Of a stretch of DNA of 64,000 nucleotides, positions 33,682-42,533 are shown in pieces. The position numbers and the translations under genes were made by a program. Source of the DNA: a virus. Lineage: Duplodnaviria > Heunggongvirae > Uroviricota > Caudoviricetes. Under the pieces are notes generated by a model. That model ran no database searches. It was given only the letters and a program-made list of their open reading frames with translations, and had not been told where the DNA came from. The DNA lies in the IMG/VR virus record IMGVR_UViG_2690316121_000006. One strand, 5' to 3'. Positions within the stretch are counted from its first letter, which is position 1. Every line of letters begins with the position of its first letter.

Positions 33682-33739
33682 AGTTACGGCCTCACAATCA
33701 GGTTTAACAACCTGCTACCCGCTGCTAAACAGGTGGCAG

Positions 33740-33830
33740 GACGTGACGGGGTTAGCAGACTGGCGATTGTGAAACCAGCAGGCCGAAGCCTCCCCATCAC
33801 GCCCCACCATAATTTGGGCGTAACGCGGTT
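33740..33830 (-). ncRNA. candidate c4-like antisense RNA region of immI
   Basis: antisense element AGTCTGCTAACC lies between two copies of GTTTAGCAGC, the second at the icd RBS; boundaries not determined. Confidence 0.3.
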
Positions 33831-33995
33831 TTACGGACACAAAAATACCGCAATATCGGATATCTGCGGCTGTCCGCACAATCATTCAGGCTGCTAAACC
33901 CGGTCGCAGAATTTGCTACGACAGCGGAACTATAAGCCTGAACGATTAAAAGGTCAATATGATGCGAAAAGATAGCATTCGCGACTTAAAAACAC

Positions 33996-34012
33996 AAATT
34001 TATTAGAGCATT
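33996..34012 (-). promoter_or_regulatory. C1-repressor operator (1 mismatch) upstream of immI
   Basis: plus strand AAATTTATTAGAGCATT. Confidence 0.5.
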
Positions 34013-34081
34013 GATTGTATAATAAATACACAAATGGAGCTAATAACCTCTTTTTTTTAAAGGCGAAAATATGTACCCTAA

Positions 34082-34747
34082 ATGGGGTATAAGGCAGGTG
34101 AGGTTTTAATGAGAAAACTATTACTACCGTTATTATTTATGGCTGGGACTGTTAATGCAGCATCAAGTGTAAAGGAGATTTGTACAGATTATACGAAATA
34201 CCTTGGGCACGTTTACGGTTTCACTGTCAGTCAGGACGGCAAAATGAAAAAAGCTCTCCAGAATGATATGACACGCTTAAGTTTGTCTGAAGCAATGGTT
34301 CAGCAAGAAATGTATAAGGTTGCGACAGATGATGCTGCAAAAATGTATTATTCGAAATTTCTTAATCCTAATCTTAATGAATATAACCGTTCGGCTTTTA
34401 ATCAGATGGTAGCGTATTGTGAAACTGCACCAGATATGATGATTCCTAGTTGGGCTGTATTAGTGGCTAATGGAAAAATTCGCAAAGAAGACCAAGGAAA
34501 ATCTTTAAGTAGCTATATAAATAGCGAACAATTTCTGAATGCGCGTGGCATGCGTACTCAAAATACTCAAGGTGCGCTTGAGCGGAGGGCTTTAGGGATC
34601 GCTGATACAAATGATACTGATAATTTGCCCCCTGGAATAAAAAAATGTGTTGAAACTAAGTTAGCTCTAATGAAACGGGACAGCCCTAACATTCCTGTTT
34701 CACAACTTACCGCTACGGCAACTAGTCTCTGCAAAGACGGGCTTTAA
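34082..34747 (+). CDS. secreted protein of unknown function (AT-rich cassette gene 1; probable start at MRKLLL near 34110)
   Basis: signal peptide MRKLLLPLLFMAGTVNA; AT-rich codon usage. Confidence 0.4.
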   Translation: MGYKAGEVLMRKLLLPLLFMAGTVNAASSVKEICTDYTKYLGHVYGFTVSQDGKMKKALQNDMTRLSLSEAMVQQEMYKVATDDAAKMYYSKFLNPNLNEYNRSAFNQMVAYCETAPDMMIPSWAVLVANGKIRKEDQGKSLSSYINSEQFLNARGMRTQNTQGALERRALGIADTNDTDNLPPGIKKCVETKLALMKRDSPNIPVSQLTATATSLCKDGL

Positions 34748-34811
34748 ATGTAAAGATATTCGAAGAAATGTTATTTTAAGGCGTTTTATCTGTGACTGGA
34801 GATAGCTAATC

Positions 34812-35162
34812 ATGTCATCTGAACATGTTCGTAAAGGTGTAACAAATGCGAAATTCAATGAAGAGCAATCTAATATTCTCTTTATTGAAATAGGAATTCT
34901 GTCAATACTGATAGGTTTAATGTCTAGATCATGGTGGGCCTTTGGCGGTTCTTTTCTTGGACTGATTTTTAGTTTAAGAATAAAATTTCTGGCAATACCA
35001 TTGATGATTGTCTTTAGCTTAGTATGGGGAGCTATTGGCTATAGTATTGGTACTTTGTTTGAATCAACAGCAGCAAGTATTGTTTTGGGGGTAATTGCTT
35101 TCCTGAGTGGCTTGGGTACTCATTTTGCTGCCGTGCAATGGGCAAATGATATTGCAGAATAG
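34812..35162 (+). CDS. small multi-TM membrane protein (cassette gene 2)
   Basis: 116 aa with three hydrophobic helices. Confidence 0.4.
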   Translation: MSSEHVRKGVTNAKFNEEQSNILFIEIGILSILIGLMSRSWWAFGGSFLGLIFSLRIKFLAIPLMIVFSLVWGAIGYSIGTLFESTAASIVLGVIAFLSGLGTHFAAVQWANDIAE

Positions 35163-35184
35163 TTACAGATAAGAAGCGAAAAGA

Positions 35185-35661
35185 ATGAATATGAGATGGT
35201 TTTTATTATTTGTATCGTTAGTTTCAGCAGGATCATTTGCAAAAGTTGATCCTCTACAATGGAATGTAATTGAAGAGAGAGGGGGAAGAGAATATACAAT
35301 CCATAATCATAATGGTGATAAGATAAGTTTTTTATGTGATATGGGATTCATGTATGGTTCACCAGATAGTGCAGGTAGTTTAGGCTTGTTGCTAAGTTCG
35401 TCGAATAATAAAAAGGAGTATAATGCTGACAAGAATAAAATAGTATTAACTATAGATGGTGAGCAATATCCTTTTAGCAATCTTGGGTCAATGGTTGGAG
35501 ATTCTTGGTGGTATGCCTTTTGGCAAGATGCAGCAGATTCAAATGCTAATATGATTGATGCTTATGTTGATAATGAAAAAATTGCTACATTCCCTCTTTC
35601 TGGGCTAAGTAAGTTGTATCAACAAGCCAAAATGGATGGATGTATTAAACGGGGCAAATGA
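35185..35661 (+). CDS. secreted protein of unknown function (cassette gene 3)
   Basis: 158 aa; signal peptide MNMRWFLLFVSLVSAGSFA. Confidence 0.4.
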   Translation: MNMRWFLLFVSLVSAGSFAKVDPLQWNVIEERGGREYTIHNHNGDKISFLCDMGFMYGSPDSAGSLGLLLSSSNNKKEYNADKNKIVLTIDGEQYPFSNLGSMVGDSWWYAFWQDAADSNANMIDAYVDNEKIATFPLSGLSKLYQQAKMDGCIKRGK

Positions 35662-35702
35662 TCTTTCTGTGTTAAAGACTAACGCAACCAATAAAACATT
35701 GG

Positions 35703-36770
35703 TTGCGTAATATTCTATTATATAGATGGAATAATATGACCAAAATTACTAATTCTAATGAGTTGGAGTTACTGTACAAACAGTCAGTAATCATTCCATC
35801 ATACAAAGATCACGTAGCGATTTTGCAAAAACAATTAGGAATAGAAAAATATTCTTTTCAAAATATGACAAGATTGAATAGACAAGCTGTAATTAGTAAC
35901 TCTCTTCGGAAACAATTGGCTAGTATGCCGAACTTGGCTGGAATAGGCAGCAAGTATCGTGAACATATCGCGATTTTACAGAAACAGACTCAGGCTCTTT
36001 TTCCTCATGACGCAAATAAATACATTCAAATGCTAAGGAAACAGGCAGAAATTGCTATGCCGTTGCGAAACCAGTTAGAGATACTTAATAAACAGGCTGG
36101 TTTAAATAACATGCAGGCGATGCTTAATGAATTAAGACAACATGTAAATTATAAGACAGATTTTAATAATGGAATAGCACTATTATTAAAACAATATACT
36201 CTGGCAAAAGGTTCTCCATTGCATCAAGTAATGGAGCAAGGTCTTTCATCTATTGCACAGGCTTATGCTGAAGGTGCTACTGAAACATCACACACGAAAA
36301 GTAATGTTCAAAATAAAGGATTAAATAAATATAGCTCAAAGTTTGTTGATTCATTTAAAGAGCTTCCTTATCCACTGCAATGGTTACTAATGGTTATATT
36401 TTCTCAAGTTGTGTTTGGTGCTTTTATTGATTACGGAAAAGAGAAAACCTTGCTGGGAATACACAAGGCAGAATCATATGTTATATCGCTGTTTGAGGAT
36501 AAACCAATATCAAAACAACAAATAATTAAAGAAAACAAAGAAATTAGTTGGGAAGATCTCAATGGTTTTCGTTTTATAACTGGTGAGAACGTAAGATTAC
36601 ACGTCAGTCCGTCTATAAATAGTGAGGTTATTGAATGCATTGGCAAAAATACTATAGTGGCTGTTTTAGATAAAAAAGATCGCCAATGGCTTTTCGTGCA
36701 GGTTAAATCAGGGGACGAGTTTATTACTGGATGGATTACACGAACATACACAAAGCCTCTTAAGGCTTGA
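35703..36770 (+). CDS. membrane-associated protein with internal sequence repeats and C-terminal SH3b-like domain (cassette gene 4)
   Basis: 355 aa; repeats HVAILQKQLG / HIAILQKQTQ / IQMLRKQAEI; TM segment; C-terminal SH3b-like pattern. Confidence 0.4.
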   Translation: MRNILLYRWNNMTKITNSNELELLYKQSVIIPSYKDHVAILQKQLGIEKYSFQNMTRLNRQAVISNSLRKQLASMPNLAGIGSKYREHIAILQKQTQALFPHDANKYIQMLRKQAEIAMPLRNQLEILNKQAGLNNMQAMLNELRQHVNYKTDFNNGIALLLKQYTLAKGSPLHQVMEQGLSSIAQAYAEGATETSHTKSNVQNKGLNKYSSKFVDSFKELPYPLQWLLMVIFSQVVFGAFIDYGKEKTLLGIHKAESYVISLFEDKPISKQQIIKENKEISWEDLNGFRFITGENVRLHVSPSINSEVIECIGKNTIVAVLDKKDRQWLFVQVKSGDEFITGWITRTYTKPLKA

Positions 36771-36875
36771 ATTTTATCACCGTATCTTGGGGCTGGTTGT
36801 TGATGACGATGTGCTACTTGACGTACTTGAGTTTTTTAACGCAGCATCTGAAATGTGCAGACTGACCGGTAACAA

Positions 36876-37490
<615 letters not shown>

Positions 37491-39089: not shown

Positions 39090-42000
39090 ATGGAACGAAA
39101 AAACGCCAACATTGACGATGTTATAAGGACAGTTGAAACCGCCAGCGCAAAAGAGCTGGAAGAGCTTGCAGGTATCCGGGAAGCTGTTGAAGATTTGAAA
39201 GGGGGGCGCGTTGCAACTGTTGATCCTGTCTCTCGCAGTGTGTCGGCATTAAATCGCACAATCGAAAATTCACGGCCAGACTTTGTGGCCAATGCGCCAT
39301 CAGTGGACCCTATTGTTGAGGCAATGAAACGGCTTAACTTAGGGGACGTTTCTCGTGTAGTTCAGGAAGATGTTGCTCAACAGGAACAGCGGGCCAAATC
39401 AACCACACCAAAGGGTAAAAAACGACGCAGGAAGGCTATACCAGAGGATGTAAAGGCACAACGGACCGAAGCAGCCGAACACGCTCGCGAAATGTTCGGT
39501 CAAAAAGGCGGTGCGCAAAAAAGCCAAAACCAACGCGATGCGCGTGGTCGTTTTATTGGGAAGTCAGGGAGTAAGGCCGCAGCGGAAGATGCCCGTGCTG
39601 AACGTGCTGAAAAAGCTAGGCGCAAAGAGGATGATGAGCGTCTAAATGCTGAATCGGGTTTATTAAAAAAACTGTCAAAAGTAGCTGAAGGCATAGGTAA
39701 CCCTTCAGAGACTCGTGCCGTCGATGCTTTAGGTTATGCCGTTGCTGGTCCATTGTGGGCAGCAGGAAAGGAGCTTGGCGGAATATCAAAAGAAGTTGGC
39801 GGTTCGCTTAATGGTGCCAGAAAGTCAATTGCCGATGTGATTCGTGGCAATGACGATAACAGCCGTAGAAAAGGTTTTTTTAGGCGTAAATCGCAAAGTA
39901 GTGCCGATGTCGTTCAGGTTAACACCCAAAAACGGACGGTTCAGGAACTTCAGGATCAGACCAGCGAAATTAAAGAGGGCAATGACAAGATTCTCAGCGC
40001 CCTTGATCAGATAGCCAAAAACACCGGGAAAAAGAAGGGCGGCTTGCTGTCCAAATTATTTAGCCTGTTAGGGAAGGGGGCCGGTGGTATTGCTTCCCTT
40101 ATTTTTGGCCGTGGGGCACTAAAGAAAGTTGGCTCGATGGCACTAGGCGCTTTAGGTATAAAAAAAGTTGCAAGCTTATTGGGCTTTGGTGGGAAAAAAG
40201 CTGCTGCCAAAGAAGCTGGCGAATTGGCTACTCGCGGTGCCGGAAAACTTGCAACTAAGGGATTGGAGAAACTAGGTGTTAAGGCTTTTGCAAAGGGGGC
40301 TTTACGCGCAATTCCGCTAGTCGGCACGGTGGCTGGAGGTATCTATGATGCGGTAACCGGTTGGAATGATACAGAAGCACAACGTCGGACCTTTGGGCTT
40401 AAGGATGGGGAAGATCCATCTTTTCAGCAAAAAGCGGCTTATACACTGGCTAACGTTCTCGATATGGGAGGACTGGTATCTGGTATTAGCAATGCCATTG
40501 GTGGCGTTCTCAAATCACTTGGATTTGAGGATATCGGCAATATGTTGCAATCATTTTCGACGGAAAGTATTGCCCAGGCCATTGATAGTGGGATTACCAA
40601 TTTAGAAACATATATTTCTAACCTTGGTGACACCATATCCACAACATTCAACGATTACACAGCCAAGATTGGCGATGCTATTTCAGCCTGGTTCAGTGAC
40701 ACAACCAAGAGTCTGAACGAAAAATTAGACGCCATCAAAGACTTCTTTACTGTCGATAACCTGAAAAAGGTTTTCAGTGATGCAATTGATAGTGCAATTG
40801 ATTTCATTAAGAACCCGGGAAAATACATTAAAGAGGCTGGTAGTAATCTATGGAATGCCGCAAAAGAGCTTCCTGGTAAGGTTGCCGATGCCGCTGTTCA
40901 GAGCACCCCTGTGGCCTGGGTTGCATCAAAGCTAGTCAACAAAGCGGATGCGAAAGAGGTTACACCTGAATTAAAAACACCAGCTAAAGAAAGTCAGGAG
41001 GACAATGCTCCTAAGACTGAATATACCCCTAAAAAGGCTAATATTGTCACTCGTGTTGTAAATGCATCCCTAGAGACGGCGAAAGATAGCAATAAAACAG
41101 TTAAAGAAACTGCCAATCAGATTATCAATGCAAATGCCGTAGAAACGGGCAATCGAGCGTTGCAGAAAATTGATAATGCTATTGGTCAAAATAGCTCATC
41201 ATCATCGTCGCTTAATACTACTGGCACTAGGAATGACATTCAGAAAGCTGCGGATACCTACAACAATGGCAACTTAGATGTAAAAGTCGGAAGCCTTGGC
41301 GCTGAAGGTAAGGCAAATCTGGATAAGCTGGCTCCGTATTTTGCTGAACTAGAGAATAAATATGGCCTTCCTGAAGGCACTCTTTACTCGATTGCGGCAA
41401 CTGAATCAGGAGGGGATCCTAACGCAAAGTCTCCGCTTACAAGATCACCAGATGGAAAGTTAAGTGGTGGCGCACTCGGGATGTTCCAGTTCACGAGTAT
41501 TGCTCGTAAAGAGACAGGGATATCGGAACAGGATGCTTTTGATCCTGTGAAATCGGCAGAAGCTGCGGCTCTTCTCATGAGCAAGTATCTGAAGCAAGCC
41601 AATGGAGACTTAAACGAGGCCATCACTGCATATAACGCTGGGTTTGGCACTATTAATAAGTGGAAAAAAGGCACAGGTGACTTATCGAAAGAAAACCGTG
41701 AGTACGCGATCAAGGTCAATACTCATCGTGCTCGCTATTTAGGTGGTGAAATCTATACACCTAGAGCAGGAACACAAGGGGGAAGACCGCAACAAAGTGG
41801 CCAATCACCAAGAATGGATAACCTTCCTGAAAACGCCTTTGTTGATCAGTCTACGGGCCTGGCGTTTACCCCTGGCCAAAATCCGTTTGAAAAAGGGGGA
41901 TTAGTAGACCGGATTGGTGAACTTACGGGGGTGAACGATCTGGCCAGCAAATTCCTGAATGGCCGGGGTATGCGTCGGGAAGTCGTTCAGGGAACGCTCG

Positions 42001-42533
42001 AAGAACGTGCACGAGGAAGGGGAACCGCAACGGCAGCTGGCAATGTGTATGTTGATACACCTATGCCAGTTGAAGAGGCACGTCCGGTGGCCAACAACTC
42101 AAGTTACTTTGACCAGCTCGGCGCACAAATGGGGATTGATGGACTGTATGACAAACTCATTAATGCCCGGGGAATGCGCTCAAATAATTCTCCTCAACCA
42201 GCTTCCACGTCCCAGATGACGACTGTCGCCAACGATTTGCAGCAACCAACCGGTCGTATGCAGATAGACGGACAGGTTATTAGTGACCTTGGCGGCTCCG
42301 GTGCCAAGCCGACAATGCAGTTGGCTGATAATACCGTTTCACTTGATGGTGAAACGAAGCGGCTGTTTGCGCAGATGACCTCATTGCTTGCCAGGATTGA
42401 AGAGCACACTAAAGACTCGGCGAAAGGCCAGGGAACTGTCGTAAAGGTCAGCACGCCTCAACCGGGCGTTATGCGCACGGTGCCACTGTCAATTGATGAT
42501 CCGTTGATGAATGACTACGCGAGAGTTGATTGA
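39090..42533 (+). CDS. sit: Sit-like tape-measure/injection protein with lytic transglycosylase (SLT) domain
   Basis: 1147 aa; Gly/Ala/Lys-rich repeats; SLT motif region YSIAATESGGDPNAKS...GALGMFQFT. Confidence 0.75.
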   Translation: MERKNANIDDVIRTVETASAKELEELAGIREAVEDLKGGRVATVDPVSRSVSALNRTIENSRPDFVANAPSVDPIVEAMKRLNLGDVSRVVQEDVAQQEQRAKSTTPKGKKRRRKAIPEDVKAQRTEAAEHAREMFGQKGGAQKSQNQRDARGRFIGKSGSKAAAEDARAERAEKARRKEDDERLNAESGLLKKLSKVAEGIGNPSETRAVDALGYAVAGPLWAAGKELGGISKEVGGSLNGARKSIADVIRGNDDNSRRKGFFRRKSQSSADVVQVNTQKRTVQELQDQTSEIKEGNDKILSALDQIAKNTGKKKGGLLSKLFSLLGKGAGGIASLIFGRGALKKVGSMALGALGIKKVASLLGFGGKKAAAKEAGELATRGAGKLATKGLEKLGVKAFAKGALRAIPLVGTVAGGIYDAVTGWNDTEAQRRTFGLKDGEDPSFQQKAAYTLANVLDMGGLVSGISNAIGGVLKSLGFEDIGNMLQSFSTESIAQAIDSGITNLETYISNLGDTISTTFNDYTAKIGDAISAWFSDTTKSLNEKLDAIKDFFTVDNLKKVFSDAIDSAIDFIKNPGKYIKEAGSNLWNAAKELPGKVADAAVQSTPVAWVASKLVNKADAKEVTPELKTPAKESQEDNAPKTEYTPKKANIVTRVVNASLETAKDSNKTVKETANQIINANAVETGNRALQKIDNAIGQNSSSSSSLNTTGTRNDIQKAADTYNNGNLDVKVGSLGAEGKANLDKLAPYFAELENKYGLPEGTLYSIAATESGGDPNAKSPLTRSPDGKLSGGALGMFQFTSIARKETGISEQDAFDPVKSAEAAALLMSKYLKQANGDLNEAITAYNAGFGTINKWKKGTGDLSKENREYAIKVNTHRARYLGGEIYTPRAGTQGGRPQQSGQSPRMDNLPENAFVDQSTGLAFTPGQNPFEKGGLVDRIGELTGVNDLASKFLNGRGMRREVVQGTLEERARGRGTATAAGNVYVDTPMPVEEARPVANNSSYFDQLGAQMGIDGLYDKLINARGMRSNNSPQPASTSQMTTVANDLQQPTGRMQIDGQVISDLGGSGAKPTMQLADNTVSLDGETKRLFAQMTSLLARIEEHTKDSAKGQGTVVKVSTPQPGVMRTVPLSIDDPLMNDYARVD

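Follow-up and report, generated by a model that had tools for sequence, protein, structure and literature searches.

A low-GC cassette of predicted envelope proteins in the sim slot of a P1-like phage-plasmid, and a peptide common to its first product and the tape-measure protein Sit

The sim slot and its four-gene cassette

The 64,000-nt stretch of viral DNA analyzed here (the window; IMG/VR record IMGVR_UViG_2690316121_000006) is a P1-like IncY phage-plasmid. Between its antirepressor gene immI and the operon that ends in sit, which encodes the tape-measure protein, it carries four plus-strand genes that we call g1 to g4. They occupy the slot that holds simABC in phage P1. The first of them is the full-length form of P1 simA, and its product shares a short peptide with Sit. 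The genes and the domains of g4 are as follows.

34109..34747, plus strand: g1, full-length SimA-type predicted periplasmic protein, 212 aa from the RefSeq start (221 aa from the alternative start at 34082)
34812..35162, plus strand: g2, small predicted membrane protein, 116 aa, with about four hydrophobic segments by hydropathy
35185..35661, plus strand: g3, predicted periplasmic protein of the YfjT/YkfB family, 158 aa; cysteine pair C51/C153 conserved
35736..36770, plus strand: g4, predicted bitopic membrane protein, 344 aa from the RefSeq start, with N-terminal helical repeats, one transmembrane segment and a very probable C-terminal SH3b domain
36372..36437, plus strand: g4 transmembrane segment, aa 213-234 of 344 (Kyte-Doolittle window 1.81)
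36588..36749, plus strand: very probable SH3b domain of g4 (SH3_3, PF08239, E = 1.1e-5)

The original prediction for this DNA described four plus-strand genes for secreted and membrane proteins, lower in GC than their flanks, and all of this was borne out. The four open reading frames (ORFs) lie at 34082-34747, 34812-35162, 35185-35661 and 35703-36770, although RefSeq places the starts of g1 and g4 slightly later. GC content is 0.357, against a mean of 0.471 (standard deviation 0.03) across all 2.7-kb segments, and this is the minimum-GC 2.7-kb stretch of the 64 kb. GC at third codon positions is 0.24-0.31 in the cassette genes and 0.41-0.53 in the flanking genes. A Shine-Dalgarno-like GGTGAGG stands upstream of the g1 ATG at 34109. 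The TTG start at 35703 that had been proposed for g4 falls within a 12-bp hairpin. The cassette DNA is 100% identical in the E. coli plasmids CP056621.1 and NZ_JBLWKF010000003.1, and a near-identity DNA search of phage records matched the flanks only and left the cassette without a match.

The slot is bounded by regulatory elements known from P1.

33729..33814, minus strand: C4 antisense RNA of immI, in the left flank (Rfam RF01695, 69.6 bits, E = 1e-12)
33883..33935, minus strand: a1/b1 target sites of the C4 RNA (Rfam RF03163, 54.2 bits)
33996..34012: C1 repressor operator Oc4 (Op51), an exact P1 operator, AAATTTATTAGAGCATT, at the left edge of the variable slot
34018..34044, plus strand: counterpart of PsimA, a predicted sigma-70 promoter of P1, placed by alignment to the P1 annotation
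36874..36892, plus strand: P1 late promoter LPsit, with one mismatch to P1, at the right edge of the variable slot

The exact operator, together with the C4 RNA and its targets on the minus strand, bears out the earlier proposal that the cassette is transcribed divergently from a C1-controlled immI promoter. That proposal had also placed the sim genes of P1 here, and the P1 annotation does put simA-simB-simC in the interval from Oc4 to LPsit, in the same orientation as the cassette. Downstream of LPsit the order is pmgC-tub-pmgB-sit. The region homologous to the predicted promoter PsimA is conserved, adjoins the C1 operator and contains TATAAT at 34018-34023. DNA homology between P1 and the window runs from the left up to 34217, 136 bp inside g1, and resumes at 36871.

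Phage P7 fills the same interval with upf50.5-upf50.0, as do SJ46 and RCS47. This pair (a lipoprotein and a DUF5384 protein) is likewise envelope cargo, but its sequences are unrelated to the cassette, and P7 lacks even a g1 remnant, its DNA homology to the window ending at 34010, that is, at the operator. The sim slot is thus a mix-and-match site for envelope cargo. simABC has been counted among eight low-GC variable regions of P1-like phage-plasmids (PMC9603915), and CRISPR interference has shown that P1 needs none of the three sim genes to grow lytically (PMC10695390). In the literature we found no paper characterizing alternative cargo of the slot. The locus itself is a known variable region and the cassette genes are already in databases as hypothetical proteins. 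We are confident that the cassette is accessory, non-structural envelope cargo in the sim variable slot.

In line with the envelope features that had been predicted, the N-termini of g1 (MRKLLLPLLFMAGTVNA/ASS) and g3 (MNMRWFLLFVSLVSAGSFA/KVD) are signal-peptide-like as read from sequence. AlphaFold2 modeled g1 with a predicted local distance difference test score (pLDDT) of 78.5 and a helical domain at residues 20-130; pLDDT fell below 50 at residues 148-168. The g1 family comprises 28 clusters, all from Enterobacteriaceae, and no solved-structure or viral structural relative of g1 was found. Profile searches of the PDB gave nothing for g1 or g3 and compositional helical matches only for g4. 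Scans of g1 to g4 against Pfam, NCBIfam, PHROGs and PADLOC returned only SH3_3 (in g4) and unnamed PHROGs. Homology of all four proteins to P1 structural or morphogenetic proteins would have spoken against the original prediction; across the family libraries and PDB profile searches, none of the four had structural-protein homology.

The g2 family has 292 representatives at 50% identity, and no Pfam model matched it. The C-terminus of g2 is acidic, not basic. Protein searches of PLSDB found g2 in 52 enterobacterial plasmids and in 68 plasmids overall, and single-protein scans of viral contigs gave no g2 match. Distant g2 homologs occur as single genes on Moraxella bovis conjugative plasmids (L012), near stbB and rep, and on the Anoxybacillus phage-like plasmid pBstUI51 (L011), near recombinase, AbiEi and terminase genes.

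The g3 product is 28% identical to K-12 YfjT over 143 aa (E = 8e-11), and C51 and C153 are invariant in the family alignment. PF27224 (YfjT), a model absent from the Pfam copy scanned here, is precomputed on a 98%-identical g3 cluster and on all neighbors of g1 homologs. g3-like proteins were found in 185 PLSDB plasmids. K-12 YfjT and YkfB share the signal peptide and cysteine pair with g3, and a small membrane-protein gene lies near yfjT (ypjK in K-12) as g2 lies near g3. They differ in being uncharacterized "y-ome" genes of the integrative islands CP4-57 and CP4-6, beside the lipoprotein gene yfjS and with neither g1 nor sit as a neighbor.

For g4, the SH3_3 match of the window copy scores 26.0 bits against a Pfam cut-off of 27. 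PF08239 is precomputed on most of the g4 homolog clusters listed, and the C-terminal domain is very probably a true SH3b. Across the family the C-terminal ~95 aa, which include this match, are nearly invariant, whereas the N-terminal helical region is hypervariable in sequence and repeat number. The internal repeat score of g4 was 47 against a shuffle maximum of 33. Because g4 has no signal peptide, its N-terminus is most simply cytoplasmic; probably, then, the SH3b domain is periplasmic, with the charges flanking the transmembrane segment ambiguous. g4-like proteins were found in 64 PLSDB plasmids, and tblastn against phage records returned nothing. Salmonella, Citrobacter and Yersinia carry distant g4 homologs as single genes located elsewhere.

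SimA, YfjT and the modules of the slot

Residues 1-50 of g1 are 88% identical to P1 SimA, which is 52 aa long (E = 8e-31). Since this match covers only the start of g1 and P1/window homology breaks 136 bp into the gene, P1 simA is the 5′ stump of a g1-type gene, which appears to have been cut in P1 upon the arrival of simB-simC. As a remnant, SimA differs from g1 in lacking both the conserved domain and the Sit-like peptide described below. Protein searches of PLSDB gave g1-like matches in 267 plasmids, with at least 80% of g1 covered in 88; in a sample taken across the ranking of those 267 matches, about half of the rows showed only a 49-aa simA remnant. Some 185-200 DNA matches at 95-99% identity were considered as possible copies of g2-g4 and rejected, as most turned out to be the 136-bp simA remnant instead.

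The cassette shares with simABC its low GC, its accessory character and a region on which lytic growth does not depend, and SimB and SimC also have N-terminal hydrophobic leaders. Only SimA is common to both. g2, the YfjT-family protein and the SH3b membrane protein are present in the window and absent from P1, and the cassette has no SimB or SimC homolog; judged by its sequences, it falls outside the Sim system as SimB and SimC define it. The proteins had originally been described as not resembling any that were recognized. This stood for SimB, SimC, structural proteins and catalogued defense proteins, none of which they match, but not for g1, given its SimA-like start, or for g3 as a YfjT/YkfB member.

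The four genes had been presented as one cassette, and as a unit this did not hold. They are pieced together from modules that move independently of one another, and the slot occurs in at least the following forms.

Form A: g1-g2-g3-g4, as in the window; at least 80% covered in 3 PLSDB plasmids and in 5 of 5,426 complete E. coli genomes
Form B: g2-g3-g4 (L005)
Form C: g1-like gene, diverged g3, and g4 with a longer N-terminus (L006)
Form D: g1-like and g3-like genes only (L013, and the isolated punavirus vB_EcoM-Ro157c2YLVW)
Form E: g2-g3 and a convergent DUF4760 gene (L015)

Diverse g1-homolog loci from Salmonella, Klebsiella and metagenomes were more uniform. In all eight sampled, a g1-like gene was followed by one or two PF27224 (YfjT) genes, often after a gap of 2-6 nt, and the pair stood immediately 5′ of pmgC-tub-pmgB-sit. 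A true g2 homolog (72% identity) lay between g1 and YfjT in one of the eight. The conserved core of the slot thus seems to be g1 with g3, a pair coupled to the injection operon, whereas g2 and g4 are separate add-ons. The cassette had been characterized as lying beside immI, which is true of the window. In two of the eight loci, however, immI was not nearby and the pair was still beside the sit operon, so immI is not the informative neighborhood.

Several further observations concern the slot and its surroundings. A Salmonella-type locus (L026, 10747-11774) has two tandem YfjT paralogs 3′ of g1, one from each allele group. In form E (L015 2517-3410; NZ_CP015837.1 8016-8909) a convergent gene for a 297-aa DUF4760 protein, without a PADLOC match, takes the place of g4. 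In the g1-less forms of L005 (NZ_CP012497.1) and L015, unrelated sequence replaces Oc4/PsimA and an ORF annotated as "ash family protein" lies beside icd, which suggests that a different immI variant travels with g1-less cassettes. The site is also a hot spot for mobile elements. In an E. albertii plasmid (L033 958-2166; NZ_CP034163.1), a gene for a TnpB-family RNA-guided endonuclease separates icd from simB, and in an E. coli plasmid (L013 405-1379; NZ_CP044439.1) the antirepressor region contains ISApl1.

Two hairpins were found within the cassette.

35682..35708, g3/g4 intergenic: perfect 11-12 bp inverted repeat, ACGCAACCAAT...ATTGGTTGCGT, from the terminator scan; exact only in the identical plasmids
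36753..36768, plus strand: short GC-rich, terminator-like hairpin overlapping the g4 stop codon

The intergenic repeat lacks a good T-run; it could serve as a terminator, an attenuator or a site for protein binding, or mark a junction between modules. Elsewhere in the window, another P1 variable region holds more accessory envelope and addiction cargo, namely a hokD type I toxin gene (~29324-29479, minus strand) and an Ail/Lom-family outer-membrane beta-barrel gene (~29972-30487, minus strand), both taken from the RefSeq annotation of an identical plasmid. A 280-aa ORF at 30583-31425 is presumably repL, from its position beside kilA.

A peptide common to g1 and Sit

A resemblance between g1 and Sit was first spotted by eye and then put to a whole-window search and profile tests. 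The segments involved are listed here.

39090..42533, plus strand: sit, tape-measure protein and structural injection transglycosylase, 1147 aa, SLT domain at aa 750-869
34523..34597, plus strand: Sit-like peptide of g1, aa 139-163, SEQFLNARGMRTQNTQGALERRALG, in a low-confidence, probably flexible segment by pLDDT
41943..42017, plus strand: Sit motif 1, aa 952-976, ASKFLNGRGMRREVVQGTLEERARG, corresponding to the peptide in g1
42150..42191, plus strand: Sit motif 2, aa 1021-1034, DKLINARGMRSNNS, an additional copy confined to the E. coli P1 lineage

In six-frame searches of the whole window, Sit was the best match both for g1 (E = 3e-4) and for its form C homolog (E = 8e-6). These matches scored 32.7 and 37.0 bits, respectively, against maxima of 26.9 and 28.9 in 200 shuffles. 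A hidden Markov model (HMM) built from 16 distinct g1 motif segments alone matched Sit in nine of nine elements, with E-values from 2e-11 to 1.5e-7 among 2,626 ORF segments; its best non-Sit match had E = 0.07. An HMM of full-length g1 run against all ORFs did not reach Sit, and only the motif-segment model did.

The codons argue against a recent DNA copy from sit into g1, and we rejected this explanation. Most identical residues are encoded by synonymously different codons (10 of 14 in the window; 8 of 15 in forms C and D), and the match has therefore been kept at the protein level. In Sit the motif lies C-terminal of the SLT domain as a conserved island beside a variable stretch, with a column conservation of 0.85 compared with 0.67 for Sit overall. 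In the diverse elements with g1 homologs, Sit is just 44-50% identical to that of the window.

Sit itself varies in two further respects. Its E. coli P1-lineage form has a ~45-aa insertion (window ~42040-42200, aa ~985-1035) that duplicates the GMR motif, DKLINARGMRSNNSP, which is single-copy in Salmonella and Klebsiella Sit. Its SLT domain falls into two deep classes, 35-43% identical between classes and 68-99% within them (L009, L030-L034). The class-2 SLT occurs in an otherwise P1-lineage Sit (N-terminus 90%, C-terminus 100%) in form C and some other E. coli plasmids, so the tape-measure protein is a domain-level mosaic. Class-2 SLT was found in 63 PLSDB plasmids.

Possible roles of the cassette

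The reading we favor, tentatively and short of calling it probable, is that the cassette is a prophage-expressed superinfection exclusion system that targets Sit, through g1 as a decoy, and so blocks injection by P1-type phages. Its products would act on the incoming Sit in the periplasm or at the inner membrane. On its flexible linker, g1 would present a copy of the conserved post-SLT peptide, which would compete with incoming Sit for a binding partner that could be a host factor, the SLT domain or a further phage component. g3 would be the periplasmic partner of g1 and g2 a small inner-membrane protein inserted between the two, while g4 would be anchored in the inner membrane, probably with its repeat region in the cytoplasm and its SH3b in the periplasm. 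A predicted periplasmic g1, encoded in an exclusion slot beside the sit operon and carrying a Sit peptide on a probably flexible segment, fits a decoy. Moreover, each of the four is a predicted exported or membrane protein without resemblance to structural proteins, and the slot and orientation are those of P1 simABC, whose annotated role is superimmunity.

HK97 gp15 is an envelope-located exclusion protein that acts at injection through the tape-measure protein. T4 Imm (bioRxiv 10.64898/2026.03.06.709160), TP-J34 Ltp (PMC3952083) and SNIPE (PMC13190303) are likewise envelope-located and encoded by phages or prophages, and make the tape-measure protein an established target of exclusion and defense at injection. 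In g1 the link to the P1 tape-measure protein is the shared peptide. We detected no similarity of g1-g4, in sequence or fold, to these proteins or to any solved structure. The known proteins, as membrane proteins or a lipoprotein, bind the tape-measure protein directly, whereas g1 is proposed to be a decoy that copies one of its peptides. T4 Spackle offers a second parallel, as a small periplasmic protein of the resident phage that inhibits the tail lysozyme gp5 and could neutralize cell-wall degradation by an incoming tail. Sit similarly has an SLT domain, and g1 and g3 are predicted to be periplasmic, but homology of Spackle to g1 or g3 was not detected and matching between YfjT and SLT class is not strict.

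Several results weigh against exclusion through Sit. BLASTP of g1-g4 against SimC, the annotated superimmunity protein, gave a best E-value of 3.3 over 23 aa, and against SimB 1.3 over 24 aa. PADLOC-DB 2.0 had no match for any of the four at E ≤ 1; SimB, SimC and other cargo of the slot are also without a match there, so the library does not cover such exclusion genes. Covariation, residue by residue, between the g1 motif and the motif of the resident Sit is only partial, the association of YfjT allele with SLT class has a clear counterexample, and the AlphaFold2 model of g4 was too poor to confirm its fold. YfjT homologs in K-12 islands and g2 homologs on conjugative plasmids have no link to P1. 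Finally, g1 or g4 is missing from the commonest E. coli forms of the slot, and the distribution therefore does not imply one mechanism shared by all four genes.

The cassette could instead be lysogenic-conversion cargo that alters the host envelope with regard to stress, lysozyme, colicins, type VI effectors or serum, with no specific role in exclusion and with the Sit-like peptide incidental or serving some other interaction. We consider this rather unlikely. In its favor, the g3 family occurs in the K-12 CP4-57 and CP4-6 islands beside a lipoprotein and a small membrane protein, P7 fills the same slot with a lipoprotein and a DUF5384 protein, g2 relatives occur singly on conjugative plasmids, and g4 relatives occur solo, beside umuDC-like or DarB-like genes. 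SH3b domains usually bind the cell wall, which also agrees. What envelope conversion leaves unexplained is the protein-level conservation of the Sit peptide in g1 despite the divergence of Sit across elements, the invariable placement of g1 and YfjT directly 5′ of the sit operon, and the restriction of the g1 and g4 families to P1-like elements.

These same genes could also have an auxiliary role in the lytic cycle, with g2 as a holin- or antiholin-like protein, g4 as an SH3b lysis accessory as in T1-like phages, and g1 and g3 as periplasmic helpers of lysis or of Sit. The size and several transmembrane segments of g2 would suit a holin, g4 matches an amidase PHROG weakly through its SH3 region, and the g1+YfjT pair adjoins the tail operon. 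Standalone SH3 proteins are tied to lysis cassettes in the T1-like Drexlerviridae (PMC13164509), and, like them, g4 is a phage-encoded SH3 protein without a catalytic domain; it differs in its membrane anchor, its long hypervariable N-terminal repeats, its distance from lysis genes and its solo occurrence in P1-like elements. We regard a lytic role as improbable. P1 and P7 function fully although both lack g2-g4 and have at most a remnant of g1, and the sim region is non-essential for P1. LPsit lies 3′ of the cassette, and the only upstream promoter annotated in P1 is the predicted sigma-70 PsimA abutting the C1 operator. The neighbors are immI and the tail operon, with no endolysin or holin adjacent; no scan for late promoters inside the cassette was made. 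The acidic g2 C-terminus also counts against a lytic role, and the predicted export of g1 and g3 argues against their taking part in cytoplasmic tail assembly.

A self-protective role seems to us slightly less probable still. Here g1 and g3 would neutralize the resident Sit transglycosylase or peptide in the periplasm, for instance against lysis from without by progeny, in a manner matched to SLT class. YfjT groups and SLT classes agreed in each of the 11 elements sampled (Mantel r = 0.65, p = 0.002), and a class-2 SLT accompanied the class-2 YfjT allele in 35 of 37 PLSDB plasmids. Strict matching of allele and class was nevertheless rejected, as it is broken by NZ_CP148408.1, which combines a class-2 SLT with a D-type YfjT allele. 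Class-2 SLT is also found with plain simB/simC, and L026 has both YfjT groups. Lineage and linkage could explain the association, which reflects few independent events.

A broader version of the decoy proposal, which we think doubtful, extends it to the whole SimA/g1 family as mimicry-type exclusion proteins. By displaying the Sit peptide from a flexible tether in the periplasm, they would jam a step that every P1-type injection needs, while the YfjT/YkfB partner would block injection or neutralize the SLT domain; P1 would have lost this ancestral system when simBC replaced it, with the simA stump left behind.

How the DNA of P1-type phages crosses the periplasm, and how Sim stops it, is to our knowledge a question that has stood since the 1980s, when sim was described. 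Phage-plasmids of the P1 type occur commonly in E. coli and Salmonella and bear the resistance genes mcr-1 and blaCTX-M-55 (PMC5786510, PMC9603915), and the control of P1-like superinfection affects their spread. New here are the reading of P1 simA as what is left of a longer gene, the conserved pairing of g1 with YfjT, the modular composition of the slot and the Sit-like peptide. For the YfjT/YkfB family, which includes two uncharacterized K-12 genes, the pairing with g1 provides a first functional lead; if the proposal is true, its members would be injection-blocking or SLT-neutralizing factors.

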